Shown: one piece after another, positions 1 to 37,294 of the stretch
Position numbering within the stretch: the first letter of the stretch is position 1
How the letters are laid out: every line of letters starts with the position of its first letter
Assembly: GCA_963749915.1 (NCBI GenBank)
Contig: CAVVOP010000022.1
Span: 384,001 to 448,000 of the forward strand
Length of the DNA stretch: 64,000 bases
Reading direction: 5' to 3'
Source: an uncultured cyanobacterium
GTDB lineage: Bacteria; Cyanobacteriota; Cyanobacteriia; Cyanobacteriales; Cyanobacteriaceae
Position numbers and translations under genes: made by a program
The notes under the pieces: generated by a model
What the model saw: the letters and a program-made list of their open reading frames with translations, nothing else
Told to the model about the DNA's origin: nothing
Databases searched by the model: none

Positions 1-873
1 ACTCACATATCTTACAAATAACATTGCCAAGATAAATTGAAATTTTTGTTTAGGGATAATTAAGCGTTCATCAGACCATATTTGGAAAAAACTGCGGAAA
101 GGTGGAGTCAAGGCTAAAACCAAATCTTTTGTGAGAAACTTTAGTTTATCCTGGAAGGATGCTCCCACTTTCCGACGATCATGAAGTCCACCGTTAATGC
201 GGGTAACTCTTTTATAAAGTTGACTCCAAGAATACCTAGCTGGATGTTTTATGCAAGCACCTTCAGCATAAGCCTGTTGATAACCAGCCTCAAATACCCG
301 ATTTCCCCATTCCTTATCCCCGCCTGATTTGAGATTGGTGTTAAAAGTCCCAATTTTATCAACAACACTTCGATAGGTAAAAAGGTTAGCGGTTACCCCA
401 AAATGTTCAGTTTCTAAAAGTCTATCTTGAGGAAAATCTAACTCAATGCTTTCATAAACTTCAACGGTGGTAAGTTGTTTGGCATCCTTAAAAAATAGTT
501 CTATTTTACCAGCCACAAGACCGCAATTAGACGTACTCAATAGCTTATCAACCCCTGCTTCAATCCAACTAGGTTCAGGAAGACAATCAGCATCAGTGAA
601 AGCAAGAATTTCACCTTTAGCATGATCTATGCCCTTGTTACGGGCGGCGTAGGAACCAGGAGTTTCTTCAACATATATGGAAACGTTACAACCTGAGAAA
701 ACTATGTCCTTAAGATCTTCATCTGAACCATTATCAACAACAATGATTTCATATAATTCTGGCCAATAGCTTTGCTTACTGAGAGCTTCTAAACAAAGCT
801 CAAGCCTAGCTTTGTCATTGTAGACAGGGATTATAACTGATACAAATGGTTTTTTTGGGTTATCATTATTCAT
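1..873 (-). CDS. Glycosyltransferase family 2 (runs off the left edge of the window)
   Basis: Not in ORF track; manual translation from ATG at 873 gives MNNDNPKKPFVSVIIPVYND...EIIVVDNGS...GSYAARNKG...ILAFTDADC, the GT2 signature, open to position 1. Confidence 0.9.
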   Translation of the reverse strand, partial: MNNDNPKKPFVSVIIPVYNDKARLELCLEALSKQSYWPELYEIIVVDNGSDEDLKDIVFSGCNVSIYVEETPGSYAARNKGIDHAKGEILAFTDADCLPEPSWIEAGVDKLLSTSNCGLVAGKIELFFKDAKQLTTVEVYESIELDFPQDRLLETEHFGVTANLFTYRSVVDKIGTFNTNLKSGGDKEWGNRVFEAGYQQAYAEGACIKHPARYSWSQLYKRVTRINGGLHDRRKVGASFQDKLKFLTKDLVLALTPPFRSFFQIWSDERLIIPKQKFQFILAMLFVRYVS

Positions 874-966
874 ACAGTATAGTTACAATTAAATATAGTT
901 TTCAATTAGATTTGTAAGCGAACTACCCCCGACAAATCCTCAGCTTTTAAGAACAGGACTAAATTT

Positions 967-1794
967 TTAAAAGGCGATCGCAAAATCTGTCAAGACTTTC
1001 TCATAAAAATGTTTTTGCTCTTTACTAAGAACTTTTTTTTGCCAATTTCTCACACTAGTAGATTGGATCGTAAGCAGCCGGTTTTCTAACTCTGGCGAAG
1101 GCGACAAAGCAAGGAAATCGAGAATTTCATAGATTTTCTGTTGTGGAGCTTGACAGATTTCCTCGTAGTTAACTTCAAGATATCTTTGCGATGGGTGTGC
1201 TTTTCTGGTTGCCGTAACATAGACAGCCCAACGGAGAACGCCCCTCTTCCACAGACCTAAATGGGGCCATTGATCTTGATAGGCTTTAGGAAGAAGATCA
1301 AACCAAAATACTTCCACTTCTTCGTTTAGTTCCCGTGAAATCCAGCGATGTCCCAACATTGAGAAGGCAACATCACGACCATCTCTAACAATATGAATTA
1401 TACTTGCATCAGAAAAATAGCCTAACAAAGAATCTGCTATCAAGCTATGTCCTGGAGTTTTCTCAAGCAATCTTTGTTCTTTTCTCACGCCACTTAGTCT
1501 CACCAAGGTTGTTTCTAAATCGAGCAATTCATGTGGAATAGTGTCTGGGGACTTAACCATCCTCCACATTTTATGGCGAACAATGGGTTTTTCCCCAAAG
1601 TCAACAGTTTCAGGCAACGACGCGAGGATATTCACTAGCATCGTTGTTCCGGAGCGACTACTGCCAACAACAAAAATTGGTTGCTTTAGCTTGGTCCGAA
1701 TAGGCCAAGGTATATTTTTTCGTAAATGAGACTTTAGCAGTGATTTCTGCAAGCCAAAACTCAATCCCTGTAATTCTTGTAATACATTCAGCAT
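967..1794 (-). CDS. Sulfotransferase (Sulfotransfer_3-like)
   Basis: PIFVVGSSRSGTT (5'-PSB), LLEKTP, IHIVRDGRDVAFS (3'-PB), YEEI. Confidence 0.9.
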   Translation of the reverse strand: MLNVLQELQGLSFGLQKSLLKSHLRKNIPWPIRTKLKQPIFVVGSSRSGTTMLVNILASLPETVDFGEKPIVRHKMWRMVKSPDTIPHELLDLETTLVRLSGVRKEQRLLEKTPGHSLIADSLLGYFSDASIIHIVRDGRDVAFSMLGHRWISRELNEEVEVFWFDLLPKAYQDQWPHLGLWKRGVLRWAVYVTATRKAHPSQRYLEVNYEEICQAPQQKIYEILDFLALSPSPELENRLLTIQSTSVRNWQKKVLSKEQKHFYEKVLTDFAIAF

Positions 1795-2775: not shown

Positions 2776-2795
2776 GGTGATTAATAGTAGTAATC

Positions 2796-6498: not shown

Positions 6499-6600
6499 AA
6501 TGTAGATTTTTTTTGGAAAAAAAACTCGTTTTTTTTGGTATTTAATACAATCTTCACAAATGCCCAAACTTGACAAAATCTTTATATAAAGATTTTGTGA
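6499..6600 (-). promoter_or_regulatory. Shared glycan-gene promoter motif, copy 1 (upstream of sulfotransferase operon)
   Basis: Minus strand ATAAAGATTTTGTCAA (6585-6570), degenerate repeat 28 bp downstream, A-tracts, TACATT -10-like at 6504-6499; aligns with 18885-18996 and 52921-53031. Confidence 0.6.
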
Positions 6601-6626
6601 TATTTAACGAAGAACAGAAAATCTTC

Positions 6627-9600
6627 CTATTCTGTGTAAGTATTCGTCAAGAACGCCTCAATGCCAGCAAAGTTAACAGGAAGACCTGCTACCGTTGTTA
6701 AGTCAAGGTCCAGTGCCCCGTCCGTTACAGTAACGCCATTTAATGTAGCAGTTACCGCCGTTTTAGGTGCCGCATTAGCTCCTAACGCCACATACATGTC
6801 AAAATCGTCTAGTTTAAGCTCATTTTCAGCAAACACATCAAAAACACGGGTACCAACTTCCGCCGTGCTTCTTGGTTCCATCATGTGGAGAACCACATCA
6901 TAGGTGCCATTGACTAAGGGAATGTCGTAGGAAATATTTGTGCCATAACGCTTAGCGTAGAAGAGCTCATCATTATCTGTGTTGGCAATCCCTTGAACTT
7001 GATAATGGGTTGTGCCACCCTGGAAGCCATAGTCAGCAGACCAGACATTGCCATAAATATCCGTAAAGCCGTTCCCACCAACATCAATGCGAATTGTGCT
7101 ATCCCCTAGAGGAGCCGAACTCACCATCACTTCCACTTCAGATGTATCTGTGTCACCATTGATGTCGGTGAGGGTGTAGGAGAAGGTGTCTGTACCACTA
7201 AAATCCTGGGCAGGAGTGTAGCGAATAACATCATCAGTGGGATCGGTTGTGTCCCGGTCATCAATGGTGATATTACCACCATTATTGCTGGTGGTATTTG
7301 CACTCAACAATGCTAAACCATCACCAAAGCTAGTGTCGTTAGCCAGTACATCAATCTGATTACTGTTACTATTGTCAATAACCGTAACACTGTCTGAAAT
7401 TGCCGTCGGCATTGAATCAACCGAGAAAATTTCAATGCCTGCAAAGTTGACAGGGCGGCCTGCAACTTTAGAGAAGTCAAGGTCAAGAACACCATCAACG
7501 ACTGCTACATTGGAAATAATAGTGGTTACTGCTGTTTTCGGAGCCGCTTGAGTATTTAGGGCCACATACATATCAAAGTCATCCAGTCGCAGCTCATTTT
7601 CAGCATAGACATCGAAAACACGACTACCAACGATGGCACCGACATTTGGCTCCATCATGTGTAGAACTACGTTGTAGATGCCATTGCTCAAGTCAATATC
7701 ATAGGAGATATTGTCCCCATAGCGCCTCCCATAAAAGATTTCATCGTTGTTTGTATTAGCAATTTCTTGAACTCGGTAATAAGTTTCACCACCCTGAAAA
7801 CCATAATCCGCCGCCCACACATCGCCGTTGACTCCCGTAAAGCCGTTACCACCAACGTCAATGCGAATCGGGGGATGGACACTATTAAGGGTTATTAACC
7901 CACCATCTGAGGCAGTTATCTCCGAAGGAGCCAAGGTACCGACAGTATTATCCAGGCTGCCCGGGGCAATAATAGTACCGACATTTTTATAAAAGAGCTG
8001 GGAATCTTGATAGAAGAGCTCAAAATCTGACGAGGTAATCAAATTTTCCACGGGGGTGTTTGTTTGATAGCTCCAGGTTTCTCTGGGGGATAATAGACCA
8101 TCACCACCAACGTCGCTGGTGACATCCAAGTCGGGATTTCCCGAGCCATAGTCGGTGACAGTCACATCATTTGTATTGAAGTTTGTAGTACCATTATTGG
8201 TAACCTCATAGGTCCAGATTACTATTTCTCCAGGTCTCACTTGAACAGCGGCATCCCGATTATTCGTCTCGACTCCATTAACCAAAGTTTTGAGGTTTAG
8301 TACAGCAACGCTAATGGGGAAAGGACGTTCTGCCCCCAGTTCATAGGCTCCAATGTCTGGAGCTTCTCCTAGGAATGGTAAGCCGACTTCTGCACCGCGA
8401 TCAACCATCAGACTATCCGCCGTTGCTGGTGCGTAAAATGGCCAGGGGCGATCGCCATTTCCCCTGAATCCAGGTTCTACATCAAGATAATTTCCCCCCG
8501 GTACGTTAGTTACGTTAACAACAATATTATCTGTCGCCGTAATCTTATCACCCATACTAGTCCAAAATAAATTTCTAGGTTGGCTCTGTGGGGCAATAAA
8601 GATATTATTTCGAGCAACCCAATTATTGAGACTATCCCGGTTAGGGGCACTCAAGATGGCTCCTGGTCGGCTACCAGTATCGGCCAAAGTCACCGTATTA
8701 TTATAAACAGAAATCTCTTCAGCAAGTCCCCGGCCGATCCAAACCAGACCCCTATCGACATTCTCAATGACATTATGGTGGAGCCAAACAGGTCCGTTGT
8801 TAATTCCCCCATGCTGAGTGTAGACATTTCCCCCCGTTTCGTCAATGTGAACATAGTTATGGCTGAATCGCAGATGGTTTCTTGGCCCCTCAATAGTGTG
8901 GCTATCTGTTAAGAGATTATCATGAATCCAGAATGAGTAGTCATAACCTCTTTTACTGGGATCTGCTCCCTGTCCAACCTTAGGAATTGAGATGGTTTGA
9001 TTGATAAAGTTGTGGTCAATTTCGACACCATACTCGTTCTCATGGGCTGATTCAATAGCGAATCCAAAAGGAAGGTTGAAGATGTTATGATGAATTCGCA
9101 CATTCTCGTGACCGCCGCCTTTATAGCCAAAACCAGCTCCTTTTGTCTTAACAATATTATTGTGGTGAATTTCAGAGTGTTCAATCCAACGGGTGGTAAT
9201 AAGGCCGTTATTGTAGCCAAAATTCTCATAACTGGCGTTTTCTATGGAGTTATTGTAAATATCTAGCCCACTCGATAACTGAAGATGCAAACCCGCCCAA
9301 CGAAAGTCTCTGACTGTTAGGTCGTGAATAGATATATCTTCTGATCCACTAACATGAACGGCTCCGGTAATCTGGTGCCGGGACTCAGAACTCAACACCA
9401 GATCGCGGATGATGATATTATTGGCATTGTCAATGGCGATCAGATATTCACTTCGAACATCACTTGCTTGAAGCGGGTTCTCCGATAATTGCCAGTCCGT
9501 TGAGGCAATGATCTGAGTCCTATTGTCTCCTTGACGACCCATACCAGCAATGGTGACACCACTTTTAGGGCGAGCTGTCTCTGTTGCCACAAAGGTTCCA

Positions 9601-10295
9601 GCCCCAAGCTGGATCGTGTTAACACCCTCAGGCACCCTTTCACTGGCATAGGCAAGGGAGTTCCAAGCTGTTTCCCAAGATAAGCCGTCTCTATCTTCTG
9701 AATCTACACCAGTGGTGGAAACAAAATAGGTTGTACCCACCTCACCCACATTCTGTTCAATTTGAATGCTTTGACCATCCAAGTTAATATTGGCTGAATC
9801 ATTTTCCACTGTGACCCTTTGCCATTCAGCTTCACTGAAGGATTCACCACGTGCCAGTGCGGAGAAAATCTCACCCTCATCACCAAAAGTGTCTGAACCA
9901 TTAAGCCAAGCATCGACTCGGTGACCAGCTTCCTCCAGAAGAAGTCCTGTAATTGTTTCCACATTGTTAGCATTTGCTACCAAAAATTCGGATGATAGAT
10001 AAATTGTGTCTGTCTCCTGTGCGTAGGCTCCGAGGGAACCTTGGAGATCAGCACCAGAGATTATCCTGATATTAGCAAAAACACTAAAATTCTCAGTTAA
10101 CCAGTCATTCCGAACCTCACTTACATCAATATTTTCACCAAATGCCAATTTCATTTTGGTGACAAATTCTATATCAGAAGCAAACAAAGTTAACTGTTCT
10201 TGTGCTTGCAATAGGGCCTGGTTTAGGGAAGGTAGAACTTCTTGGTCTGTACCGATGAGTAAGTTATTCTCTATAATACTCAAGAATTCACTCAT
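6627..10295 (-). CDS. Large surface/secreted protein: N-terminal EExGH domain, right-handed beta-helix, Ig-like domain, malectin, Ig/cadherin-like, malectin
   Basis: LLEEAGHRVD...GDEGEIFS; IHHN/NNTV beta-helix rungs ending APDIGAYE; two IRIDVGG...W.ADYGF...RVFDV..E...LDDFD malectin domains; IDVLAND...YTP..F.GTDTFSYT module. Confidence 0.85.
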   Translation of the reverse strand: MSEFLSIIENNLLIGTDQEVLPSLNQALLQAQEQLTLFASDIEFVTKMKLAFGENIDVSEVRNDWLTENFSVFANIRIISGADLQGSLGAYAQETDTIYLSSEFLVANANNVETITGLLLEEAGHRVDAWLNGSDTFGDEGEIFSALARGESFSEAEWQRVTVENDSANINLDGQSIQIEQNVGEVGTTYFVSTTGVDSEDRDGLSWETAWNSLAYASERVPEGVNTIQLGAGTFVATETARPKSGVTIAGMGRQGDNRTQIIASTDWQLSENPLQASDVRSEYLIAIDNANNIIIRDLVLSSESRHQITGAVHVSGSEDISIHDLTVRDFRWAGLHLQLSSGLDIYNNSIENASYENFGYNNGLITTRWIEHSEIHHNNIVKTKGAGFGYKGGGHENVRIHHNIFNLPFGFAIESAHENEYGVEIDHNFINQTISIPKVGQGADPSKRGYDYSFWIHDNLLTDSHTIEGPRNHLRFSHNYVHIDETGGNVYTQHGGINNGPVWLHHNVIENVDRGLVWIGRGLAEEISVYNNTVTLADTGSRPGAILSAPNRDSLNNWVARNNIFIAPQSQPRNLFWTSMGDKITATDNIVVNVTNVPGGNYLDVEPGFRGNGDRPWPFYAPATADSLMVDRGAEVGLPFLGEAPDIGAYELGAERPFPISVAVLNLKTLVNGVETNNRDAAVQVRPGEIVIWTYEVTNNGTTNFNTNDVTVTDYGSGNPDLDVTSDVGGDGLLSPRETWSYQTNTPVENLITSSDFELFYQDSQLFYKNVGTIIAPGSLDNTVGTLAPSEITASDGGLITLNSVHPPIRIDVGGNGFTGVNGDVWAADYGFQGGETYYRVQEIANTNNDEIFYGRRYGDNISYDIDLSNGIYNVVLHMMEPNVGAIVGSRVFDVYAENELRLDDFDMYVALNTQAAPKTAVTTIISNVAVVDGVLDLDFSKVAGRPVNFAGIEIFSVDSMPTAISDSVTVIDNSNSNQIDVLANDTSFGDGLALLSANTTSNNGGNITIDDRDTTDPTDDVIRYTPAQDFSGTDTFSYTLTDINGDTDTSEVEVMVSSAPLGDSTIRIDVGGNGFTDIYGNVWSADYGFQGGTTHYQVQGIANTDNDELFYAKRYGTNISYDIPLVNGTYDVVLHMMEPRSTAEVGTRVFDVFAENELKLDDFDMYVALGANAAPKTAVTATLNGVTVTDGALDLDLTTVAGLPVNFAGIEAFLTNTYTE

Positions 10296-13300: not shown

Positions 13301-13442
13301 CGTAAAATAGCTGATCGTTATCAGTACCGGCAATCTCCAAAGCTTTATAATGGGTTGAACCACCCTGGAAGCCATAGTCAGCAGACCAAACATTGCCATA
13401 AATATCGGTAAAGCCGTTACCGCCAACGTCAATTCTAATCAT
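10398..13442 (-). CDS. Malectin, 3x Ig/cadherin-like, FG-GAP beta-propeller, malectin protein
   Basis: AGAGGA RBS-like site before ATG; malectin at both ends; three 97-aa repeats; about seven FG.SV.I.G.T..IGA...GSAYIF repeats. Confidence 0.85.
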   Translation of the reverse strand: MIRIDVGGNGFTDIYGNVWSADYGFQGGSTHYKALEIAGTDNDQLFYGKRYGDDFSYNIALDNGTYDVVLYMMEPNKNARIGSRVFDVSAEGTVRLDDFDMFLALGSGAAPLTALTATIANVSVIDGILNLDFSTVTGTPPNIAGIEILPSSGTPVDLLPSAMADSRTVNENSSSNTIDVLANDTSFGNGLASLTADATSANGGTVIVDNNQILYTPATDFDGTDTFNYTITDIDGDSSSAMVTVTVNSISPVDLFPSAVADSRTVNENSSSNTIDVLANDTSFGNGLASLTADATSANGGTVTVDNNQILYTPATDFDGTDTFNYTITDIDGDSSSAMVTVTVNSITPVDLFPSAVADSRTVNENSSSNTIDVLANDTSFGNGLASLTADATSANGGTVTVDNNQILYTPATDFDGTDTFNYTITDIDGDSSSAMVTVNVLAVNINPPTVTKVTASDGSANDWFGSSVYIEGNTAIIGSFRDGAGSAYIFSQGADGSWVETAKLKAGRDDFGRNVALDGNTAIIGAPGYNSGSAYIFTRQADNSWVQKAMLTPADGAKGDEFGNSVSIDGDTALIGAFGDDNGGKVDTGSAYIFTRQGDGSWTETAKLVGSGAASRDFMGRRSISINEDTAVVGAYGNGTGSVYIFTRQEDGNWLETAKLTPADGADGDEFGRNVSIDGNILVVGAKHNDETGEDSGAAYIFNRQGDGSWTQTAKLTAADATAGDRFGYSLFLKGNTLAIGAYNDDDGGIDSGSAYIFHQQDDNSWIQTKKITAPDAAELDWFGYSISTDGSNLVVGAFRDDDNGDNSGSAYIYSLDSNGAENLAPNGFAENISADENSLNNAVDVLMNPAPATGDSLIRINVGGDSFTDIYGNQWSADYGFQGGSTHYAVQEIGNTDNDELFYAKRYGTNISYDIPLANGNYDVVLHMMEPNKNATVGSHVFDVVAEDQLRLDDFHMSVALGAGAAPGTAVTATLKGVTVTDGALDLDLTTVTGLPVNFAGIEAFLTGTYTE
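12127..12954. repeat. Intragenic tandem repeat, 291-bp unit, ~2.85 copies
   Basis: ACGGTTACCATGGCGGAAGAAC recurs at 12127, 12418 and 12709; units nearly identical. Confidence 0.95.
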
Positions 13443-13568
13443 ATGAAATCAATCCTCTTAATTAATAATTATTGATAAATTTGGGAGATGGACATTTTAC
13501 TTTCTTAATCCTGAACATTGGGGCCAAGCTAAGGGCAATGCCTCACAATACTGCGAGGGATAGCGGTC

Positions 13569-13769
13569 AAACTTTATGAGATGAGAAGTGTGGGGAGTGT
13601 GGCTCACAGGTGTCGGTTTTTTACAAAAACATTCTGATGAGGGTGAAGACTTGCGAGGACAAGGGTGGAAAGTGGACAAGGAAGAGGGGAATCGTTTAAG
13701 GAACACTTTGTTACAAATAATACATAAATAGCTGAAAAGACCCTTTTTCGTTTGTACTATCTCCCTTGT
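13569..13769 (-). repeat. ~200-bp dispersed repeat, inverted relative to 20946-21146
   Basis: Reverse complement matches 20946-21146 with few mismatches; partial relatives at 13800-13900 and ~33716-33810. Confidence 0.9.
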
Positions 13770-13903
13770 CTGCTGTCCTTCGTTCCTTCCTTGTCTTGTC
13801 TCAACCCAAATGTAAAAAACCTACCCTTGTCAGGGGCACTGTGGGAAGTATGGGATTTTTCTTCCCCATCTTCCCCCTCTTCCAAGTCTCACCTTCGCCC
13901 AAA

Positions 13904-21146: not shown

Positions 21147-21276
21147 TTCAGCTTAACCGAGTAGTATTGACTCACACCTCCCATACCTCCCACACTCCCT
21201 TGTCTCATGACCTCAAGAAATATCCCGTGAAAAGTTAGCTTAAGCTAATCAATAAGTCCAAAAAACATTTTATTTC

Positions 21277-25528: not shown

Positions 25529-27229
25529 ATGTCTAGTAAATCTAACCATCCCCTGATCCTTATAGGTCTTGATGCCGCTCAACCTCCACTGTTGGAAGAG
25601 TGGATATCCAAAGGATATTTACCCAATATATCTCGCCTCAAATCTGAGGGCGTTTATGGACACTTAGAGAATTTTCGGGATTCTAATGTCGAAACGGCTT
25701 GGACTACCGTAGCCACAGGTTGTTCCCCTCAAACCACCGGATATTGGGCTGCGATGGGTTTAAAGGAAGGCACTTACGAAACTGAAACTCGTGCCGCTTA
25801 CGATTTTCAGGAATATTCTCCCTTTTTCGCTCATTTAAAAGATTATCGCATCGCCACTTTTGATGTGCCACAATTGAGAATTAGAGATGATATTAACGGG
25901 CTACAAATCGGTGGTTGGGGTGCTCACTCTCCCCAAGTACCTAGTTCCTCAGTACCAGAATCTTTATGGCAAGAAATTATTTCTAAACATGGCAATCATC
26001 CGGGTTTACATCGTGATTATGCTGTTTCTTTAGACTTAGAAGGCACATTAGAAATAGAAAAAAGACTACTGACGGGTATAGATAGACGCATCAAAATTTG
26101 TAAAGACCTATTGAGTAGAGAGTCTTGGGATTTATTTTACATGGTATTTGGAGAAACCCACGGTGGTGGTCATCTTTTCTGGCATTTAAGTCAATCAGAT
26201 CATCCCCTTTATAACGTTTTTCAACCATTGATTGATCATGATCCCTTACTCAAAACCTATCAGGCCATTGATAAAGGCATTGGAGAAATACTAGAAGTTG
26301 CTCCCCCTGACGCTAACATTATCTTGTTTTCAGCCCATGGCATGGGTACGGCTCAAATTGATTTACCCAGCTTTATTTTCTTACCTGAATTACTTTATCG
26401 TTATAGCTTCCCGGGTAAATATGCTCTAGGTTATAGTGATCCCTTTGAACCAATACCACCAATGATTACCTCAATGAAATGGAATTACTGGGAGAGAAAT
26501 ATTTGGGGTACTAAATATGATGCTAATCCTTTACGCCGTTTTTTACGAAATGAACTTCCCACTAAACTTTTTAATCTCTTTCAACCATGGATTGATCCCA
26601 TCAGAGATGATGATTTGATTTTTGATACTCAGTTAAGAAAACAAGGGGAAAGAGTAGTTCCCTGGAATCCAGCACAATGGTATAAACCTTTATGGTCAAA
26701 AATGAAAGCCTTTGCTATTCCTAGCTTTGCCGAGGGTTATGTTCGCATAAATCTCAAAGGAAGAGAACCTCAAGGAATTGTTGATCCTTCTGAATATGAT
26801 ACGGTTTGTGAGGAAATTTCTGAACTACTTTACTCTCTCAAAGATGCTCGCAATGGTCTTCCCATGGTAACTCGCATTGTGCGTACCCGTAAAGATAGTA
26901 GCGATCGCAATCCCAAATTACCCGATGCCGATCTGATTGTGGTGTGGAGAGAGGAACATATGACGGATGTAGTCGAAAGTCATACTCAAGGAAGAATAGG
27001 ACCTTTTCCCTTTTACCGTTCGGCCAGTCATCGAGAAAAAGGTTTTATCTTAGCCTGTGGAGAAAATATACCAAAAGGTTTAGAATTGTCGGATGCTCAT
27101 GTCTTAGATCTTCCCCCGACCATTTTAAGTCTGATGGGAGCAAATATTCCCGAACACTTGGAGGGAAAAACTTTATTAAAACTTCAATTAAATGATCTGG
27201 TCATAAATCGTCCACCTGATTATAATTAA
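25529..27229 (+). CDS. Alkaline phosphatase superfamily protein (phosphodiesterase/nucleotide pyrophosphatase-like)
   Basis: LIGLDAA, LPNISRL, AWTTVATG, FGETHGGGHLFW, FSAHG, RINLKGREPQG, LDLPPTIL. Confidence 0.8.
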   Translation: MSSKSNHPLILIGLDAAQPPLLEEWISKGYLPNISRLKSEGVYGHLENFRDSNVETAWTTVATGCSPQTTGYWAAMGLKEGTYETETRAAYDFQEYSPFFAHLKDYRIATFDVPQLRIRDDINGLQIGGWGAHSPQVPSSSVPESLWQEIISKHGNHPGLHRDYAVSLDLEGTLEIEKRLLTGIDRRIKICKDLLSRESWDLFYMVFGETHGGGHLFWHLSQSDHPLYNVFQPLIDHDPLLKTYQAIDKGIGEILEVAPPDANIILFSAHGMGTAQIDLPSFIFLPELLYRYSFPGKYALGYSDPFEPIPPMITSMKWNYWERNIWGTKYDANPLRRFLRNELPTKLFNLFQPWIDPIRDDDLIFDTQLRKQGERVVPWNPAQWYKPLWSKMKAFAIPSFAEGYVRINLKGREPQGIVDPSEYDTVCEEISELLYSLKDARNGLPMVTRIVRTRKDSSDRNPKLPDADLIVVWREEHMTDVVESHTQGRIGPFPFYRSASHREKGFILACGENIPKGLELSDAHVLDLPPTILSLMGANIPEHLEGKTLLKLQLNDLVINRPPDYN

Positions 27230-27275
27230 TTGAACATCGAGAATATTGTCCTTATATTTTGAACAAATAAAGATC

Positions 27276-28146
27276 ATGAATATCCGCAAATTATTATTTT
27301 CGTCGGCCTCGCTTGTTACCACTATAGTATCCAGTAGTTTGATTGCCTCCCCAGCTGAGGCTTTAGTGATTGGAGGTAGTAATATTAGAGGGGGGACTTC
27401 ACTGGGGTCAACGAAAATAACAGATGCACCAAACAATAAGTGTAATGTAGTATCAGGGTTTGATCATATGTCCGTTAGGAGATATTACAGTCTTAAATCA
27501 AGCCCCATCACAAGTCTCCAACGATTCTGTAATTGTTGATGGTTCTTTGATTTCCACAGTAAAAATACTTGCTTTTGATGAGAAGCAAAACATTAGACTA
27601 GATCAAAACATTCAAATATGGGACGACTTTAATTTTGGTACGCCCTATGATCCAACAGTTGACCTTAGTTTTTATGCAAATAATCCTACTATTAACGTGT
27701 CTTCGGGTACTTTACTAAGTAGTCATTTAATCTTTTTAGATCCGATAGCTGAAGATGGAACAGCTCACCGGGCAAGATGGTCAGGACAAATAAATTTTGA
27801 TCAAGAAATCTTAGGAATTATTCCTATCAGTGGTGGTGCGTCATCTAATAATTTAATCGGATCAACTAATTTATTTGGTTTAGATACGACAATTTATAAT
27901 TTTAGAGGACGAACACTGGATTATGGTTTGCAAGATGTTGCCACTTTCAATGGTAATACTCTGTCTTTTGATCTTAATGCGTTTATTGGAATGGATCCTA
28001 TTCGTGTTATTACTAGAGGATCGGTTGAACCAGTACCTGAACCATTGACAATTATGGGTAGTGGTTTAGCCTTCGGTTTAGGATTGATGTTTAAACGTAA
28101 ATCATTGACAACTGAAAAGTCTCAAAAAGTTACAACAACTTCATGA
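27276..28146 (+). pseudogene. PEP-CTERM sorting-domain protein with a frameshift near 27465
   Basis: Signal peptide MNIRKLL...SPAEA in one frame; remainder ending VPEPLTIMGSGLAFGLGLMFKRK in another. Confidence 0.8.
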
Positions 28147-28420
28147 AAGTGATTATAAGGCTCTTTGGGACTTTAGGCTTAAGCCTACAGTTTCTAAACT
28201 CTGGGCTTCTTTTGGGATAAGCTTAAGTACCCGAAGCGGATCCCTGTGGATCGCAAACTAACAGAAATCAGGATTTTGAGTTTTTGTTAGAAAATAATGG
28301 GGCGATCGCTTCTATCAAAGAGTTCTACGATTCAGCAAGGACAAGTGTTTTCCTAGAGTCCTAGAAGAGCGATAATTAATCCGTTAATTTCTTTTGATTA
28401 AATAAAACTTTTTTATAGAT

Positions 28421-29233
28421 ATGAACAAAAAAGTTATTAAAAATCTTGTTTATCCCGTTATTAAATCACCTCCCGATTTTTTAATTATCGGAACTCAAAA
28501 AGGTGGAACAACTTCAATTGCTAGGTATTTAGAACAACATCCACAAATTATACCAAATAATAGTTGGAAAGAAGTTAGATACTACGATCTACCCGAAAAT
28601 TATGAGCAGGGTTGGGGATGGTATTTAGGTAATTTTCCTTTTAAATGGCAAAAAAAAGATCTTCTAACTTTTGATGCTTCTCCTAGTTACTTACATTTTC
28701 CCCATATACCAGCATTAATAAAAAAAGATTTGCCAAAAATAAAGATGATTGTTTTGTTAAGAAATCCAGTTACTAGGGCTTATTCTGGGTGGCGGATGTA
28801 TCATAGTTTCAGTAATAACCCCCATAAACATATGAAAAATATTACTGATTATCGAACTTTTGCAGAAGCGATACAAGAGGAATTAAACCCTGAATTCAAT
28901 ACGGCTAAATACCCTTATGATTATATTAATAGGGGTAAATATATTGAACAATTAGAAAATTATTATCAATATTTTAATCGAGATAATATTTTAATCTTAA
29001 ATTTTGATTTATTTAAAAATGACTTAGATTCTTTACTCAATAAAACTTGTGAATTCTTAGAAATTCAAAATTTTTCAGAGACAAAAATCAAGCAATTTAA
29101 AGAAGAAAAACATAATGTGGGTAAATATCAAAAAAGTTCTGAAGATGAAGAAACCTTAGAATTTTTAAAACACTATTTTAAACCTTTTAATGAAAGATTG
29201 TATCAGCTTTTAGATTATAATTATGACTGGTAA
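28421..29233 (+). CDS. Sulfotransferase, heparan-sulfate-ST-like (Sulfotransfer_1)
   Basis: PDFLIIGTQKGGTTS, KEVRYYD, DASPSY, LRNPVTRAYS, FKPFNERL. Confidence 0.9.
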   Translation: MNKKVIKNLVYPVIKSPPDFLIIGTQKGGTTSIARYLEQHPQIIPNNSWKEVRYYDLPENYEQGWGWYLGNFPFKWQKKDLLTFDASPSYLHFPHIPALIKKDLPKIKMIVLLRNPVTRAYSGWRMYHSFSNNPHKHMKNITDYRTFAEAIQEELNPEFNTAKYPYDYINRGKYIEQLENYYQYFNRDNILILNFDLFKNDLDSLLNKTCEFLEIQNFSETKIKQFKEEKHNVGKYQKSSEDEETLEFLKHYFKPFNERLYQLLDYNYDW

Positions 29234-29277
29234 ATGCAATTATAAAAACTTATTTAAAACCTTTGTAAATATCAGAT

Positions 29278-30414
29278 ATGTCAATTCGTGTTGGTTTTTT
29301 ATCTGCTCACAATTATTTCGATCGTAATTCTTGGTCGGGAACAATCTATAATATGTATCAGAATTTAAAAAGTCAAAATGTAAAACTTATTGATTTAGGC
29401 AATCCCATTAAGGCTTCTGTTTGGAGAACAATAATGAGTAAAATGGCGAAATTAGAATATAAACCTCCAGTAGCATCAGAGGATTATATTAAAAAATATC
29501 AAAACTTTGCCTATAACGTAAATGAACAACTAAAGAAAAATCCTTGTGATGTTATTTTTGCCTGTGTCGCTTCACAAGAAATATATTTTTTGGAAACAAA
29601 TATTCCCGTACTATATTCTTCAGATACTACTTTTAGATTGTATGATGGCTATTATAGGTCAGATTTTAGCAAAAAAGAATGGGAATGGCGAGAAACCGTA
29701 GAATCTATCGCCATCAACAAAGCCCATACATTAGTTTATCCTTCACAATGGGCGGCACAATCAGCGATTAATGATTATCAAGCAGATGTTAATAAAATAA
29801 AAATCATTCCCTATGGTGCAAATTTAGATAATCCTCCTAAGAGAGAAGAAGTTTTACAAAGAAGAAAATCTCTTTCTCCTTGTCGTTTACTATTCATTGG
29901 TAGAAATTGGCAAAGAAAAGGGGGTGATATTGCGGTAGAAACTCTAAAGATTTTGAATAATAGAAATATTGACACAGAGTTAGTCATGATAGGTAGTGTT
30001 CCCCCATCTCCCATTGATGATCCAAAATTGAAGATAATTCCCTTTTTAGATAAAAATTCCTCTCAACAAAGACGGAAATTTGAACAATTATTTTGGGAAT
30101 CCAATTTTTTACTGTTTCCCACTCGTGCGGATTGTTCACCTATTTCTATTTGCGAAGCCAACGCATTTGGTCTTCCCGTTATTAGTAGCAATGTGGGCGG
30201 TATTCCAGATATAATTACTGAAGGTAAAAATGGTTATTTGATGGATGTTTCTGCTACAGCAGAAGATTACGCTAATTCGATTCAACAATTGATCGATAAT
30301 CCTGATGATTATGAGGAATTAATGATCAATGCGAGAAATGAATATGAAACTCTTTTAAACTGGGATGTATGGGCAAAGGAAATATATTCAATTATGGAGG
30401 ATACTCTCAAGTGA
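29278..30414 (+). CDS. Glycosyltransferase family 4
   Basis: LLFIGRNWQRKGG, FPTRADCSPISICEANAFGLPVISSNVGGIP. Confidence 0.9.
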   Translation: MSIRVGFLSAHNYFDRNSWSGTIYNMYQNLKSQNVKLIDLGNPIKASVWRTIMSKMAKLEYKPPVASEDYIKKYQNFAYNVNEQLKKNPCDVIFACVASQEIYFLETNIPVLYSSDTTFRLYDGYYRSDFSKKEWEWRETVESIAINKAHTLVYPSQWAAQSAINDYQADVNKIKIIPYGANLDNPPKREEVLQRRKSLSPCRLLFIGRNWQRKGGDIAVETLKILNNRNIDTELVMIGSVPPSPIDDPKLKIIPFLDKNSSQQRRKFEQLFWESNFLLFPTRADCSPISICEANAFGLPVISSNVGGIPDIITEGKNGYLMDVSATAEDYANSIQQLIDNPDDYEELMINARNEYETLLNWDVWAKEIYSIMEDTLK

Positions 30415-30953
30415 ATATTGATCAATTGATGGCTAGTCGACAAAAATTAAATAAAAACCCCGAAATCTCAGCAACAGAAGCAGATTGGAGTCGAGAAAAA
30501 ATAGAAAAATGGTGGACTCCTTCTAAGCAACTACTAAAATCCATTCGTCAATATCAAAAATGGCAATTAAAATCTCATATATTTGCTAAAATTGTCCAGG
30601 GGTGCTGTGTTCTCCAACATCGTTTTTGGACTGTAGTAACTGGTGCGGATATTCCCTTGAACTGTCAACTCGGAGGAGGGTTGGTTTTGCCTCATCCTAA
30701 TGGTGTCGTCATTCATCCTAGTGCCCAAATTGGCCCCAATTGCACTATTTTTCAGCAAGTTACTATTGTTACTAAGGTTAAAATTGGAGGTCACGTAGAT
30801 ATTGGCGCAGGGGCCAAAATTCTCAAAAATGTCACCATTGGTAATCATACTAAAGTTGGGGCAAATGCGGTGCTGAAAAATATTGATATACCAGAAGGAG
30901 CCCTTGCGGTCGGTATTCCTGCTCGGGTCGTGAAACAAAAATCTGTGGGATGA
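30411..30953 (+). CDS. Hexapeptide-repeat (CysE/WcaB-like) acetyltransferase; last codons supplied by IS1 end
   Basis: GGAGG RBS then GTG 30411 overlapping the GT4 stop; LPHPNGVVIH, IGAGAKIL, VGANAV, GIPARVV. Confidence 0.85.
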   Translation: MNIDQLMASRQKLNKNPEISATEADWSREKIEKWWTPSKQLLKSIRQYQKWQLKSHIFAKIVQGCCVLQHRFWTVVTGADIPLNCQLGGGLVLPHPNGVVIHPSAQIGPNCTIFQQVTIVTKVKIGGHVDIGAGAKILKNVTIGNHTKVGANAVLKNIDIPEGALAVGIPARVVKQKSVG

Positions 30954-31865: not shown

Positions 31866-32852
31866 TCATTTTAATTTTTTCTTAGTAATTTCATTGATTG
31901 TAAGTTTTACTTGTTTTTGCCATGATTTCAAACCTAGTTTACGAGAAATAAAGTCCGCTAAAAATAAAGATAAACCCAAACTTTTAACTCTAAATAGCAC
32001 TTTTAGCCACCAATTTTCTATTTGTAATTGTTTTTTCTGTAAACCATTAGGCTTAATAGATGGCAAACCACTTAACTCATAACCGCGATCAGTTAATAAA
32101 TCTCCCACTTTTGACTCTACCAACTGAATATCAACGTCTGACAGTTTTTTTCGCCACTGTTGTATTAATTTAGGATCAGGAGAGCTATAAGTGGTATTGT
32201 CATCATAGGTTAACATCAAAGGATCATAATCGACCCCCATAAATTCACAAATGGCGGTTAAAACGGTTACAGGATCACTGATCAGATTTTCGTAATTAAT
32301 TTCAATATACCGATCTGGCGAAATCTTGTTGTTTTTTAACTGATTCCATAAATGTTCAGCTTCTAACCAGCGATCTACGCCATACCATACATTACCTGCC
32401 CACCCCATACCGATACAAGAACGGGCTACATCCCTAGGGTCTCGGATAAGATGAATAAAACGAGCATCACCCCAAATATACAGTAGTCGATCAAAATGCC
32501 GATGTACTGTTGCACCAATCAAAGGTTTGCCACAGGAATTGACTTTCTGAGCTAGAAAACTATTCACCAGTTGAGGATAATTAAGATTTTTATCAATGGC
32601 AAAACCCATAGATTGAAAAATACGATCACTTTCCAACCATTCATAATAGTTATCCAGTGAAGGATATTGACCGTCATTGGCAACTAAATCCACTGAATAT
32701 TCAAATTCCTGTACCCAACCGACGGAAGAATGGTGATCTAACATTAGACGTAAGACGGTTGTGCCAGAACGTTCTGCACCTACAAGAAAAATCGGCTTGC
32801 CTATATCCACATAAAGTGCTATAAATAAGCCCCCCTGCTTTCTCCCAACCAT
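31866..32852 (-). CDS. Sulfotransferase with a foreign 5' end (start uncertain)
   Basis: PIFLVGAERSGTT, IHLIRDPRDVARS, YENL; sequence upstream of GKP is a copy of 34251-34397. Confidence 0.8.
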   Translation of the reverse strand: MVGRKQGGLFIALYVDIGKPIFLVGAERSGTTVLRLMLDHHSSVGWVQEFEYSVDLVANDGQYPSLDNYYEWLESDRIFQSMGFAIDKNLNYPQLVNSFLAQKVNSCGKPLIGATVHRHFDRLLYIWGDARFIHLIRDPRDVARSCIGMGWAGNVWYGVDRWLEAEHLWNQLKNNKISPDRYIEINYENLISDPVTVLTAICEFMGVDYDPLMLTYDDNTTYSSPDPKLIQQWRKKLSDVDIQLVESKVGDLLTDRGYELSGLPSIKPNGLQKKQLQIENWWLKVLFRVKSLGLSLFLADFISRKLGLKSWQKQVKLTINEITKKKLK

Positions 32853-34105: not shown

Positions 34106-35890
34106 TTAATTTGATTCTTTATCAACGTCAATAACACTTGACGGCGAATTATTGGATTCCTTATTTTTGATAAAATCAACCAAAGCATTATATTTAGGAG
34201 ATCCAGACTGCTCCAAATATTCTAAAGCTCCCCAACTACCGTGTTTACTGGGCTTGCCTATATCCACAAAGTGCATAAATAAGCCCCCCCCTGCTTTCTC
34301 CCAATCATTCAATAATTCTGTATATAAATCATACATTTCTGGTCGTCGATTTAACTCCATGAAAAAGTTATTTAGTTCTTCGTTATTTTTAACTTTTTTC
34401 ACTCCCACTATATGTTGTCCTCCTTCATAGGCAACTAGTTGTAAACCTCTTTCTTTAGCTACTTGCTGATGATAGATATATGTCTGATTTTTCTCCTTTA
34501 AACTACCTTGTCTTTCACCAGTTATTAACCCACCTATTCTCAATTGTTCAAAAGCTTTATTAAATCCCCCATCGGTTTCATTTAACCAGGACTGTACTAA
34601 TGCTTCGTTCTTTGGACTACCTAAACCCCCCCCTACATAACCGGTAATACCATAAGCGGAAATACCATGTTGATAGCAGGGTTTATTCCCTTCTTTTACC
34701 CACTCAGGGCAGTCTAAAGCGGCTTTTTCCAATCCTTGCCATGCTGTTTGAGTTGACATGACGCAAACAACCCGATCTTTGTCATCTGCAAATACCTGTT
34801 TCCAAAGATCACACATTTGAGCAGTCCGCATTCCATACCACTGCATATACGCGTCTCCCTTGTCTCCCCATCTAGCTTTACCCTCATTTAACGCATAATG
34901 AGATTGTTTAAATTGCCGATTCCAAACCTCATTGGAAAATTCGACATATATTTTGAGGTTAGGATCTAAACTATTTTTAACTAATTTAGCAAAATTGGTG
35001 ATATATTCATCCGTAGCCTGATGAGGCATATTAAACCAAAGATCTTTTTTGAGCTTATTGCCTAAGGCCGTCATTGTTTCAATGGAAACCCCCTTCAAAG
35101 CATAGGAGGAAGTTTTTGGAGTTGGTCTATTTTTCCATTCCTTTTGCTCGGAATTGTTGGTTTTCATCCAATCCATAAAGCGAAAAGTACTAAAGGGCTT
35201 GATTTTCTCTAAAAATAAGGGGTTAAAGATTTCCCCTTGATTAAATAATTGTTCGTGTTTAGCTTCGATAACTTTTATGTTGCGGATATAATCACCTGTC
35301 TTATTCGGATCAGTGGAGGTGATGGTCATTAATATCCCATTTTTTTTACCAGAATCTACGTTGATGACGTCTCTACCCTGTTTTGATTCTGAATCTAATT
35401 TTGTAGCTGACCAACTATAGTTTATCTTTCCTTCCCCTTCATATAGCACCACATACTTACCTTCGGGGAAATGATCACTAAGTCCAATAATGCTACTGAC
35501 ACGAGTAAATTGAACGGAATCTTCTGGCTTGGGCAGGGATTTAACCCATCCGTTTTCGTCTAAGTCTAATAATTCATTTTCTCCTGTACTCCATTTTTTT
35601 TCACAGTTAGGATCAGATCTAACACATTGAGGAATCCATGAACGGGCAGTTTTAAAATGATCTAGGAAAGGATATTGGGTTGACCAATCAGCGATACCAC
35701 CTAAGCCAATTCCTAGGGACATTTCTTGTGGAGGAGGATTATTTAACTGTTTATTTTCGGCAATAATAGAGGATATAGCCCTCTGATTCTGTGAAGGTTG
35801 ACAAGCTGACAATAAACCCCAGAGAGACAAAAAAGATAAAAGGCTGAGAATAGGTAAATTCATAATATAAATAGTAATTAAATTGATCAC
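34106..35890 (-). CDS. Lipoprotein of the 'cellulose-binding protein' type, putative glycoside hydrolase
   Basis: Lipobox GLLSAC (likely start M at 35863); RFMDW, WFNMPH, YVEFSNEVWN, AYEGGQH, GSWG motifs. Confidence 0.7.
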   Translation of the reverse strand: MINLITIYIMNLPILSLLSFLSLWGLLSACQPSQNQRAISSIIAENKQLNNPPPQEMSLGIGLGGIADWSTQYPFLDHFKTARSWIPQCVRSDPNCEKKWSTGENELLDLDENGWVKSLPKPEDSVQFTRVSSIIGLSDHFPEGKYVVLYEGEGKINYSWSATKLDSESKQGRDVINVDSGKKNGILMTITSTDPNKTGDYIRNIKVIEAKHEQLFNQGEIFNPLFLEKIKPFSTFRFMDWMKTNNSEQKEWKNRPTPKTSSYALKGVSIETMTALGNKLKKDLWFNMPHQATDEYITNFAKLVKNSLDPNLKIYVEFSNEVWNRQFKQSHYALNEGKARWGDKGDAYMQWYGMRTAQMCDLWKQVFADDKDRVVCVMSTQTAWQGLEKAALDCPEWVKEGNKPCYQHGISAYGITGYVGGGLGSPKNEALVQSWLNETDGGFNKAFEQLRIGGLITGERQGSLKEKNQTYIYHQQVAKERGLQLVAYEGGQHIVGVKKVKNNEELNNFFMELNRRPEMYDLYTELLNDWEKAGGGLFMHFVDIGKPSKHGSWGALEYLEQSGSPKYNALVDFIKNKESNNSPSSVIDVDKESN

Positions 35891-35893
35891 AAG

Positions 35894-37294
35894 TCAAAGG
35901 TTAACTTTTTGACGTTTCAACGGCTGTGGTTTTTTTGTAACCTTGATTTTTCTCATTCTCAATTCCTGGGTAGAAAAATCATTTCTCACCAACCCTGATA
36001 ATCCCCCAGCAATTAAAGGAAAAATCGGATTAAACATAGAGTTGAGGAGGGAATCCACAACAAATAAAATTAAGCAAACTCCTAAAACCGCCGCCGACGC
36101 TATTTGAGGATGAAACCAGGTTTTTACTAGATAACGCCATTGGGAAAAGTAAAGTACCGGGAAGAGAAAAGAAGTAAACACAGTCACTAAACCCATTAAG
36201 CCATTTGTGCCAAAAACAATAATCCAGAAGCTATCAGGTGTAGAAATATCGACAAATTCCCCCGCAAAATTTTCTTCCAATACTCGATTTCTCCCCCATC
36301 CGCCCCAACCAAACAAGATCTTTTCTCTGGCTCGATCCCCTAATATTTCTTCATTATCAAGTCTAAACTCCAAGGATTGTGCCCTTTCTGGACTGATATT
36401 GTCACTTGCGAAAGAGACCAAATTTTCTCCGTTAAAGTTGCCACTGACAGCGATGGCCAAATAAGCAACAATAGCGAACATAAGTAAAAGTAAGGGCAAA
36501 CTAGTACGAATACTTTTAGCACAAAACAGAATAATTAAACCAGCCAACATCAAAACATAAGCACCAGTGGATTTAAGCAGAATAAAAGTAATTAAGAGAA
36601 TAATGGATACCCATTCGATGGGAATACGCCAAATTTTTTCCACTACTTTTGCCTGCCATAACCAAATGGCTATGAGAGTCGCCGTCATCATAAACAATCC
36701 CACCATTAAGCCATGTTGCATAAAAACCTGTGGTCTCCAACCACCCAACCTTATGGTTTGTCCAAAGGAATGGGGGAAATAACCATAAACCATGGTGTGC
36801 AATTGAGGACTCATCCTTACTTCATATAAGCACAAAGGGGTATATAGTAGTCCGGCCTTAACAATACTAATGGACAAATCTCTTAACCCAATAAAATTAT
36901 TGAGATAAAGTCGCCCTAAAAAATAAGGCATTCCCCATTCAAAAGTTCGATCGAGACATGCATTGAAACCATCATAAAAACCCAGTTCGTTAGTAAGGGA
37001 AGAAAAAATAGGACTAATCCCAAATAAAATTATGGGAAGATCAATCCATTTCAGTTTAAATTTACTGAATATTTGGGCATCGTAAATAAGAATACCGATA
37101 AAAATTCCGTAACAGGTAGCAACCATTCCTCCATAATCAGGAATCAAAGGCAAAGCAAAACCAGCCCTTCGGGGTAGGAATAAGACACCACCTAAAAAAG
37201 CCATAATTACAGCCTTTCTTGGTGGAAATTTTGCAAATAAGTATAAAATTATCGGTAGCCATAAGATCATGGCAAGTTGGGCTTGAGCAGACAT
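35894..37294 (-). CDS. Wzy/O-antigen ligase-like polysaccharide polymerase
   Basis: Many TM helices; YEVRMSPQLH, RPQVFMQHGL, RAQSLEFR, FGWGGWGR. Confidence 0.75.
   Translation of the reverse strand: MSAQAQLAMILWLPIILYLFAKFPPRKAVIMAFLGGVLFLPRRAGFALPLIPDYGGMVATCYGIFIGILIYDAQIFSKFKLKWIDLPIILFGISPIFSSLTNELGFYDGFNACLDRTFEWGMPYFLGRLYLNNFIGLRDLSISIVKAGLLYTPLCLYEVRMSPQLHTMVYGYFPHSFGQTIRLGGWRPQVFMQHGLMVGLFMMTATLIAIWLWQAKVVEKIWRIPIEWVSIILLITFILLKSTGAYVLMLAGLIILFCAKSIRTSLPLLLLMFAIVAYLAIAVSGNFNGENLVSFASDNISPERAQSLEFRLDNEEILGDRAREKILFGWGGWGRNRVLEENFAGEFVDISTPDSFWIIVFGTNGLMGLVTVFTSFLFPVLYFSQWRYLVKTWFHPQIASAAVLGVCLILFVVDSLLNSMFNPIFPLIAGGLSGLVRNDFSTQELRMRKIKVTKKPQPLKRQKVNL

Follow-up and report, generated by a model that had tools for sequence, protein, structure and literature searches.

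Does a run of sulfotransferase genes beside genes for giant malectin proteins amount to a single system, in which a sulfated polymer is made together with the proteins that handle it? The question is raised by the first 37,294 nt of a 64,000-nt stretch of DNA from an uncultured member of the Cyanobacteriaceae (hereafter the window; positions 384001-448000 of contig C22 in a source genome, G000, that measures 4.69 Mb and is 100% complete). A preliminary description of the window had taken this region for one undescribed sulfated-matrix locus. Our analysis shows that the flagged region is two things and not a single 37-kb system. The reading that we favour, with somewhat more confidence than doubt, is that the left part is a horizontally acquired sulfated-exopolysaccharide (EPS) cassette, whose giant proteins are likely secreted matrix proteins that would bind, remodel and release the polymer, and that the right part is a separate, native set of synechan-type genes.

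Two gene sets in the flagged region

Genes were checked by open reading frame (ORF) calling and Pfam/NCBIfam scans (Table 1). The scans recover all seven sulfotransferases, with best matches spread over PF13469, PF03567 and PF00685, as well as the GT2 and two GT4 glycosyltransferases (GTs), the Wzy-like protein (through its Wzy_C domain), the hexapeptide-type acetyltransferase, the alkaline phosphatase (AP)-superfamily enzyme, the PEP-CTERM gene and the three co-oriented malectin proteins of 1594, 1014 and 1222 aa directly upstream of the sulfotransferase operon. These three giants carry all six malectin (PF11721) domains of the whole genome, each scoring 68-78 bits against a curated cut-off of 23. 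Four of the five strongest PF13469 matches genome-wide fall in the window, and the concentration of sulfotransferases there exceeds chance. The lipoprotein proposed as a glycanase has a lipobox in its sequence and no Pfam match, and it stays a glycanase candidate. The unity of the region does not hold. The span from 19.4 to 24.8 kb is filled by IS630 and ISL3 insertion sequence (IS) remnants, hypB/hypA and a hydrogenase protease gene, the right part is interrupted by XisH/XisI and Uma2, and the left operon continues off the window. The preliminary description is therefore right about the gene classes and wrong about the single locus, and its interpretation is supported for the left island and not for an all-in-one system.

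The left island comprises 18 genes, all on the minus strand, over ~29 kb (C22:373968-402688), from window position 18,688 to 10 kb past the left edge. They encode the three malectin giants, seven sulfotransferases, six GTs, a putative polymerase of 468 aa and two beta-helix proteins, one of which is the core of the 1222-aa giant. The 17 intergenic gaps range from -20 to 211 bp, with a single exception of 461. Fifteen of the 18 genes lie at or above the 75th percentile of third-codon-position GC content (GC3) for long ORFs, a reference set that includes some spurious ORFs. Malectin is found in none of 19 same-family genomes, and a DNA search of the left 11 kb of the island against 40 relatives gave just short or distant hits among the matches listed. 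Taken together, the raised GC3, the absence of malectin from the 19 same-family genomes and the left DNA without a close match in relatives form a foreign signature, and the island is likely a horizontal import.

The right part (25.5-37.3 kb) is, as judged by orthology, a native set of synechan type whose genes have become separated and which may also lack members. In G001, a genome of the same genus, counterparts of XssF, XssH, XssO, XssI, the lipoprotein, XssE, XssB and XssA form a single cluster, and the AP enzyme and the PEP-CTERM/sulfotransferase/GT4 group lie at two further loci, so that the right-hand genes of the window are spread over three loci there. We regard the set as broken up because the partners are clustered in G001 but lie on other contigs in G000, where the best matches to XssA, B, I, M, N, O and P (51-63%) are on contigs C8, C5 and C30. 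XssH has no match at E 1e-5 among the genome ORFs, and polysaccharide copolymerase (PCP) genes are located elsewhere. The XssG match (G000:C25:5226-5753) is 175 aa long against 362, and since this match is short and XssH was not found, the native synechan-type pathway may be decaying.

A single 37-kb system, in which the seven window sulfotransferases, the PEP-CTERM protein, the AP enzyme, the lipoprotein and the giants together build one protein-glycan matrix, would explain the physical closeness of these genes, all of which are of a surface-glycan type. The IS and hyp genes between the two parts argue against it, as do the partners of the XssE and XssF orthologues on other contigs and the right-hand genes themselves, which have native GC3, 63-83% orthologues at separate loci within the genus and no copy of the promoter-like element that is described below. 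We give this explanation very little credence and read the right part as a native, fragmented synechan-type set.

Several further observations concern the right-hand genes. A 112-bp piece of the lipoprotein gene (34286-34397) is duplicated with 96% identity at the 5' end of the XssE orthologue (32830-32941), with Uma2 between, and this duplication, together with the adjacency of the two genes in G001, indicates a recent rearrangement. Inverted copies of a multi-copy repeat (25123-25440 and 30926-31129, 31836-31880) flank the block that runs from the AP enzyme to the acetyltransferase. In the lipoprotein family, N-E and Y-E motifs are invariant in 20 aligned sequences, which we take to be the mark of clan GH-A; PDB sequence searches with the lipoprotein gave nothing of note, and its ESM Atlas clusters are unnamed or labelled 'cellulose-binding'. 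A sulfotransferase domain is also embedded in a 2802-aa protein elsewhere on the contig (G000:C22:589133-597541), which is possibly a CurM-like polyketide synthase module.

The island operon and BH470 in other genomes

The core of the island belongs, by sequence comparison, to a widespread cluster family. Relatives of the 468-aa protein occur in 26 of 400 phylum genomes, a sample in which just ~180 genomes are of the same class as G000. Among the 21 of these 26 neighbourhoods that were examined (20-40 kb each), GTs are present in 20, often with a PCP or Wzx, whereas a sulfotransferase is found in two, malectin in one and BH470, the beta-helix core of the 1222-aa giant, in none. For 74 of the 88 unlabelled ORFs from these neighbourhoods and from EPS-linked malectin loci, Pfam gave methyl-, pyruvyl- and acyltransferases and no sulfotransferase. 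An orthologous core is shared with the distant cyanobacteria G424-G428, in which the polymerase is 56-70%, the 425-aa GT4 62-78%, the 352-aa GT2 63-76% and the 372-aa GT4 43-61% identical.

The conserved partner of the sulfated operon is, judged from gene neighbourhoods, BH470 and not malectin. BH470 was found in nine other cyanobacterial genomes (10 of 42 loci are cyanobacterial), and in five of the nine (G424, G425, G426, G428 and G431) it adjoins the orthologous island operon. Three to four distinct sulfotransferases stand by BH470 and the operon in G424, G425, G426 and G428, and partly broken ones in G431. In G427 the sulfated cluster is on a different contig from BH470. The remaining genomes contain a 42% relative (G430), a weak match (G432) or none (G429).

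These patterns would also fit a wider proposal, which we regard as possible and rather doubtful. In this proposal the polymerase-centred EPS cluster family switches from methyl and pyruvyl to sulfate decoration, and a BH470 lyase or epimerase travels along as part of a mobile kit and is used by heterotrophic Planctomycetes and Verrucomicrobia to eat the polymer; in the present strain the kit would have gained malectin-mounted enzymes and a propeller, and a strain-specific element with 28-bp-period boxes would have gathered dispersed surface genes into a single matrix regulon.

The giant proteins, a shared element and a proposed mechanism

The 1594-aa and 1222-aa giants have an N-terminal domain in common. 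In the 1594-aa giant the G8 and CEMIP Pfam matches are both below cut-off, and the AlphaFold 2 (AF2) model of its core (predicted local distance difference test, pLDDT, 74.5) matches TMEM2 (PDB 8c6i) with Z 24.4 and a root-mean-square deviation (rmsd) of 3.5 over 511 aligned residues, with a top Foldseek match at E 2e-14. The core is thus predicted to fold like TMEM2. Most of its distant homologues contain both the G8 and CEMIP families, and no close homologue was found in 28 genomes of one family. The 1014-aa giant begins straight with a malectin domain, and hydropathy reveals no export signal. The architectures of the 1594-aa and 1014-aa giants are united in a single chain in the 2376-aa protein P0124, and because of this and of the multi-copy repeat between the two genes, they likely arose by the split of one fused ancestor. 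In another genome, a 2101-aa protein (L327:3237-9542, G463:C181) combines in one chain a G8 core and a domain from the 'cellulose-binding' lipoprotein family, with 39% identity to the window lipoprotein. A low-depth contig of metagenome run X3 joins the 3' malectin of the 1222-aa gene (6700) to the 3' end of the 1014-aa gene (10470), which represents either malectin-repeat recombination or misassembly.

BH470 is modelled as a right-handed beta-helix with high confidence (pLDDT 97.1). Its structural matches include AlgE6 (Z 30.9, rmsd 2.2, 323 aligned) and RbmB (Z 27.8, rmsd 2.5, 295 aligned), while a PDB sequence search with the BH470 profile gave zero matches. The top Foldseek ranks are held by GH136 and PL9 enzymes, so the fold alone leaves the chemistry of BH470 unfixed. 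Among 109 family sequences G205, Y206, H211, F227, E230, E236, E284 and R287 are invariant and K207 is present in 105. The 190 homologues are mainly stand-alone proteins of ~500 aa from cyanobacteria, Planctomycetes, Verrucomicrobia and others, and six cyanobacterial copies end in a hydrophobic tail. The strain appears to have grafted the two cores onto malectin scaffolds, whereas elsewhere the cores stand alone, BH470 with a C-terminal membrane anchor. Stand-alone orthologues at loci L025, L026 and L028 (around 4-13 kb) have a hydrophobic tail and no evident signal peptide, and their genes are surrounded by small secreted-type genes and an exosortase gene. A G8 relative adjoins BH470 in G429 and G431. 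BH470 also lies near sulfatases at 3 of 21 heterotroph loci, a count that is without a control and is not used as evidence.

A 115-bp non-coding element precedes the giants, the sulfotransferase operon and the 352-aa GT2 gene. It has a -10-like hexamer and two to three boxes that are directly repeated with a 28-bp period. Eleven sites were found in G000 (nhmmer, E < 1e-14; mean pairwise identity 0.68) and none in the locally shuffled genome. At ten of the 11, a gene on the same strand follows within 300 bp (null 0.32, P ~8e-5). Among the eight non-seed sites, six face glycan or secreted-repeat-protein genes: a WecG GT, a GT2 in a Wzm/Wzt cluster, a GT-like/PhyH/sulfotransferase operon, an SdrD-repeat giant, an RTX protein and a weakly UDP-galactopyranose-mutase-like oxidoreductase. 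Of the last two, one is back to back with another WecG and one faces unknown genes. These results suggest that the element may be a promoter through which the giants, the sulfotransferase operon and WecG would be regulated together, and its position before the giants, the operon and the GT2 is sequence evidence for co-regulation, short of proof. A candidate regulator is the XssQ-like helix-turn-helix (HTH) protein at C21:163296. A pattern of the element allowing up to three mismatches is absent from 40 relatives, 400 phylum genomes and the nine BH470 genomes, and diverged versions could escape such a pattern. The possibility that the element is an XssQ box was rejected, as the similarity is just loose and the XssQ consensus is missing from the three seed copies. 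Rfam gave no match in the window, and sigma-70 and terminator scans stayed at chance level. One of the sites outside the island stands before a giant within a run of high-GC3 SdrD-repeat/DUF7467 giants (G000:C32:85863-103221, L285). The run also includes a protein with an animal haem peroxidase domain.

The WecG gene behind the fourth copy of the element is likely a displaced piece of the island cluster, because its product matches the WecG at the end of the orthologous clusters of G424, G425, G426 and G428 better than any other in the genome, at 50-59%, and because the gene was not found in a DNA search of five genus relatives.

In the mechanism that we propose, the GTs and the displaced WecG would build a lipid-linked repeat, the sulfotransferases would decorate it, and the 468-aa membrane protein would polymerise it by a Wzy-type route, with the flippase, PCP and outer-membrane polysaccharide export (OPX) proteins borrowed from elsewhere in the genome. 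An activator binding the 28-bp-period boxes would switch on the whole set together. BH470 is likely an enzyme with a lysine base, either a lyase or an epimerase, that would act specifically on the polymer when sulfated, and the G8/CEMIP core may be a second depolymerase. The FG-GAP propeller would, by analogy, be a polymer-binding adhesin, and the malectin/immunoglobulin (Ig) stalks would serve as tethers. The preliminary description had envisaged a sulfated polymer with dedicated secreted-type proteins. This part of it finds support in the left island, through the shared element, the position of BH470 by the operon in five of nine genomes and the lyase/epimerase-like and TMEM2-like folds, and it does not extend to the right-hand genes. 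The island provides candidates of three kinds, namely a new family of beta-helix enzymes that accompanies the sulfated form of a widespread cluster, a bacterial protein resembling TMEM2, and a shared promoter-like element from which a regulon can be predicted. The structures of sulfated cyanobacterial polysaccharides could be solved with the help of enzymes that cleave them, and such enzymes would connect the producers with their degraders.

A number of observations, in this and the following paragraphs, weigh against this mechanism. The 468-aa multi-transmembrane (TM) protein has no Pfam or NCBIfam match, so that 'polymerase' is a label that we infer. No flippase, PCP or OPX gene is among the 18 of the island, and the ABC transporter of the orthologous clusters has best G000 matches of just 30-34%. 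Hydropathy detects no signal peptide or TM segment in any of the three giants, and all HlyD-like genes in the genome, as possible type I secretion adaptors, score below cut-off. A shared fold does not show function. In the window, BH470 has Phe204 and His281 where Tyr is found in 102 and 103 of 109 sequences, respectively, and because of these replacements the activity of the copy may be changed or lost. In the 455-aa paralogue, encoded at the far end of the operon, a Tyr-Gly-Phe-Lys motif is retained. Finally, close kinship is probable among four of the five supporting genomes, which reduces the evidence to about three independent lineages, including G000.

The IS remnants, the flippase, PCP and OPX genes lying outside the island, the apparently split giant gene and the two replaced tyrosines might also mark a decaying import that no longer makes polymer. 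All 18 frames are open, however, and full-length relative to their orthologues, and two studies, with four sediment metagenome runs between them, contain near-identical pieces of the island. One contig, from a run that may be the source sample, spans 4386-6720 and bridges the giant/sulfotransferase junction. Decay of the island is highly improbable in our view. In a further explanation the cassette makes a sulfated glycan destined for linkage to lipid or surface proteins (lipopolysaccharide, PEP-CTERM proteins or the giants themselves), and the 468-aa protein is a ligase or oligosaccharyltransferase. Besides an exosortase, the clusters of G424, G425, G426 and G428 encode small secreted-type proteins in arrays and, in place of Wzx, a full-length ABC exporter, which together with the lack of a family match for the 468-aa protein would fit attachment. 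The presence of PCP and OPX in the G425, G426 and G428 clusters nevertheless indicates polymer export, and an exosortase of that type has no match in G000, so we consider an attached glycan quite improbable.

The preliminary description had tied its proposal to a linkage of malectin genes with sulfotransferase clusters elsewhere, and such linkage is largely absent. Malectin is present in 9 of the 400 phylum genomes, and an unbiased set of 14 loci in 10 genomes (those nine and G038; the set includes one broken fragment and three loci from short or cut contigs) contains no sulfotransferase within ~20 kb of malectin, so a general malectin-sulfotransferase linkage is rejected. An EPS export cluster lies near malectin at 4 of the 14 loci, two of the four from one genus, compared with 0.4% of random 40-kb windows in G000, the sole genome used for this null. 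In the biased set of malectin loci from BH470-holding genomes (n=7), five are by EPS clusters and three by sulfotransferases. In favour of the cassette reading, the operon has a co-oriented malectin giant immediately upstream in G424 and G427 and one inside it in G132. The giants of G424 and G427 are unrelated to those of the window, and a domain scan of the G424 giant reveals a different architecture. G425 and G426 have the operon and malectin nowhere in the genome. Because malectin giants are found upstream of the operon in G424 and G427, yet are absent in G425 and G426 and away from sulfotransferases in the unbiased set, they are, on this comparative evidence, an optional addition that recurs at EPS clusters without being orthologous from case to case. 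The G8 core is no better linked: a sulfotransferase is found by its homologues, nearly all of them distant (28-35%), at 1 of 45 metagenome loci of at least 8 kb and at 0 of 18 cyanobacterial loci.

Such results would be expected if the giants were passengers, that is, general adhesins or foraging glycanases in a surface-variation island beside the EPS operon, acting on other glycans such as the polymers of other organisms or substrate surfaces. BH470 and the close G8 clade also exist as stand-alone proteins, BH470 is widespread in heterotrophic Planctomycetes and Verrucomicrobia, where its gene neighbourhood is not conserved, and the element also precedes unrelated SdrD-repeat and RTX genes. 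On the other hand, BH470 keeps its place by the orthologous operon in the five genomes, the operon has a second paralogue, and copies of one element stand ahead of the giants and ahead of the operon. We therefore think it unlikely that the giants are passengers and retain the cassette with its own matrix proteins as the favoured reading.

Coordinates are collected in Table 1. The IS630 remnant at the right boundary of the island contains a 311-bp tandem duplication (window 20115-20725) that is absent from one contig of run X3.

Table 1. Features of the window and of the adjoining part of the island (window positions unless a contig is named).
Feature	Position	Strand	Basis and remarks
GT2, 307 aa, extends off window	1..873	-	Pfam
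Sulfotransferase (Sulfotransfer_3), 275 aa	967..1794	-	Pfam, best family PF13469
Sulfotransferase (Sulfotransfer_2), 292 aa	1897..2775	-	Pfam, best family PF03567; 49% in G428 cluster
GT4, 355 aa	2796..3863	-	Pfam
Sulfotransferase (Sulfotransfer_3), 294 aa	3860..4744	-	Pfam, best family PF13469; 41-44% in G424, G425 clusters
Sulfotransferase (Sulfotransfer_3), 318 aa	4725..5681	-	Pfam, best family PF13469; 64% to gene in orthologous G425 cluster
Sulfotransferase (Sulfotransfer_2), 227 aa	5732..6415	-	Pfam, best family PF03567
Element copy 2	6499..6602	-	84 bp upstream of first sulfotransferase; nhmmer E 5e-20
1222-aa giant: N-terminal domain, BH470 core, Ig-like domain, malectin, Big_9, malectin	6627..10295	-	Pfam
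BH470, right-handed beta-helix core of 1222-aa giant, residues 186-655	8330-9740	-	AF2 prediction
1014-aa giant: malectin, 3 Big_9, 7 FG-GAP repeats (propeller), malectin	10398..13442	-	Pfam
Dispersed multi-copy repeat between giants 1 and 2	13546..13834	.	gap; 61 blastn matches in genome
1594-aa giant: N-terminal domain, G8/CEMIP-type beta-helix core (residues 181-1066), 2 Big_9, 2 malectin	13904..18688	-	Pfam, AF2
Element copy 1	18884..18998	-	196 bp upstream of 1594-aa giant; nhmmer E 1e-24
IS630 and ISL3 transposase remnants, right boundary of island	19362..22434	+	Pfam
Block of five genes (next five rows)	25529..30953	+	native, unrelated to island
AP-superfamily enzyme	25529-27229	+	
PEP-CTERM protein	27460-28146	+	TIGR04155 above cut-off
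Sulfotransferase	28421-29233	+	Pfam, best family PF00685
GT4	29278-30414	+	
Acetyltransferase, hexapeptide type	30369-30953	+	
XssE sulfotransferase orthologue	31866..32852	-	Pfam, best family PF13469; 54% over 312 aa; 75% in G001
Lipoprotein, family database-labelled 'cellulose-binding protein', candidate glycanase	34106..35890	-	lipobox; inside G001 xss-like cluster
XssF (synechan Wzy) orthologue	35894..37294	-	Wzy_C; 52% over 465 aa; 63-68% in G001, G002, G004
Element copy 4	52920..53032	+	94 bp upstream of WecG gene; nhmmer E 1e-20
WecG/TagA glycosyltransferase with c-di-GMP-binding motif	53126..54244	+	Pfam/NCBIfam
GT4 381 aa, sulfotransferase 306 aa	beyond left edge, before element copy 3	-	
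Element copy 3	C22:381717-381829		before GT2 (352 aa) in left half of island
GT2 352 aa, GT4 372 aa, GT4 425 aa, sulfotransferase 352 aa, putative polymerase 468 aa	after element copy 3	-	
Beta-helix protein, 455 aa, N-terminally anchored	far end of operon, to C22:373968	-	30% to BH470
Remaining element sites	C8:837646, C21:2533, C32:97963, C22:460149, C5:147194, C20:212424, C20:34154		

Comparison with known systems

Sulfotransferase genes are described as common in cyanobacterial EPS clusters, and such clusters as often partial, in the sections of PMC8205485 cited here. Our literature searches on malectin with cyanobacteria and sulfotransferase or exopolysaccharide, on the bacterial G8 domain and on sulfated EPS clusters with lyases returned just reviews and unrelated papers. 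In the literature searched, synechan alone has genetically defined sulfated-EPS genes, and no cyanobacterial cluster with its own matrix proteins or a polymer-cutting enzyme was found, although the supplementary cluster lists of Maeda 2021 may already show a cluster of the island's type. The island resembles the xss/synechan cluster of Synechocystis PCC 6803, as far as the cited sections of PMC8205485 and PMC13125312 describe it, in having clustered GTs and sulfotransferases and a predicted Wzy-type polymerisation. However, its GTs and sulfotransferases are just 22-34% like Xss proteins, its 468-aa protein has no XssF match (an XssF-type Wzy is present in the right part only, at 52%), and xss is without giant malectin or beta-helix genes. 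An XssH-type Wzx flippase was not found among the G000 ORFs, and PCP genes lie outside the cluster. For the XssQ, XssR and XssS regulators, G000 gives an HTH-level match alone (40% over 74 aa, C21:163296), with no full XssQ. With flippase and regulators lacking, the island is not, on sequence grounds, a member of xss.

The 1594-aa giant is similar to the hyaluronan-degrading proteins TMEM2 and CEMIP in its predicted CEMIP-type beta-helix fold and candidate G8 domain, but it is bacterial, lacks a membrane anchor, ends in a malectin/Ig tail and has Pfam scores below cut-off.

For BH470 the best structural match is to the Azotobacter AlgE mannuronan C-5 epimerases/lyases, whose right-handed beta-helix A-module fold is seen in the model. 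AlgE R-modules bear RTX, whereas Pfam finds no RTX family match in any giant. Like BH470 as we picture it, AlgE proteins are secreted modular beta-helix enzymes that act on the polymer of their own producer, and the catalytic set reported in the cited part of PMC7385640 is Tyr149, Asp152, His154 and Asp178. In spacing alone, the motif Y204-G-Y-K207-G-G-G-H211 of the BH470 family, taken together with E230, is similar to this site. The two differ in that sequence identity is 13%, BH470 has Lys at the place of Asp152 and its His two residues further on, and the window copy has Phe for Tyr.

A parallel in overall design is the vps/rbm system of Vibrio cholerae, in which, according to the cited portions of PMC11637428 and PMC10102183, the RbmB lyase acts beside RbmC and Bap1, propeller adhesins that bind Vibrio polysaccharide (VPS). 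In both systems polysaccharide genes stand beside a beta-helix protein, with BH470 predicted to resemble RbmB in fold, and a propeller protein with separate sugar-binding domains. RbmB uses a Lys base that is assisted by a Glu 26 residues on (cited portion of PMC12993940), and BH470 has the conserved K207 and the invariant E230 and E236, a correspondence by spacing alone. The island propeller differs in having seven FG-GAP repeats rather than eight blades and malectin rather than beta-prism domains; the island polymer is predicted to be sulfated, and the enzyme core is fused into a giant. The relation between the island and vps/rbm is thus best described as an analogy of design, not as homology or membership.

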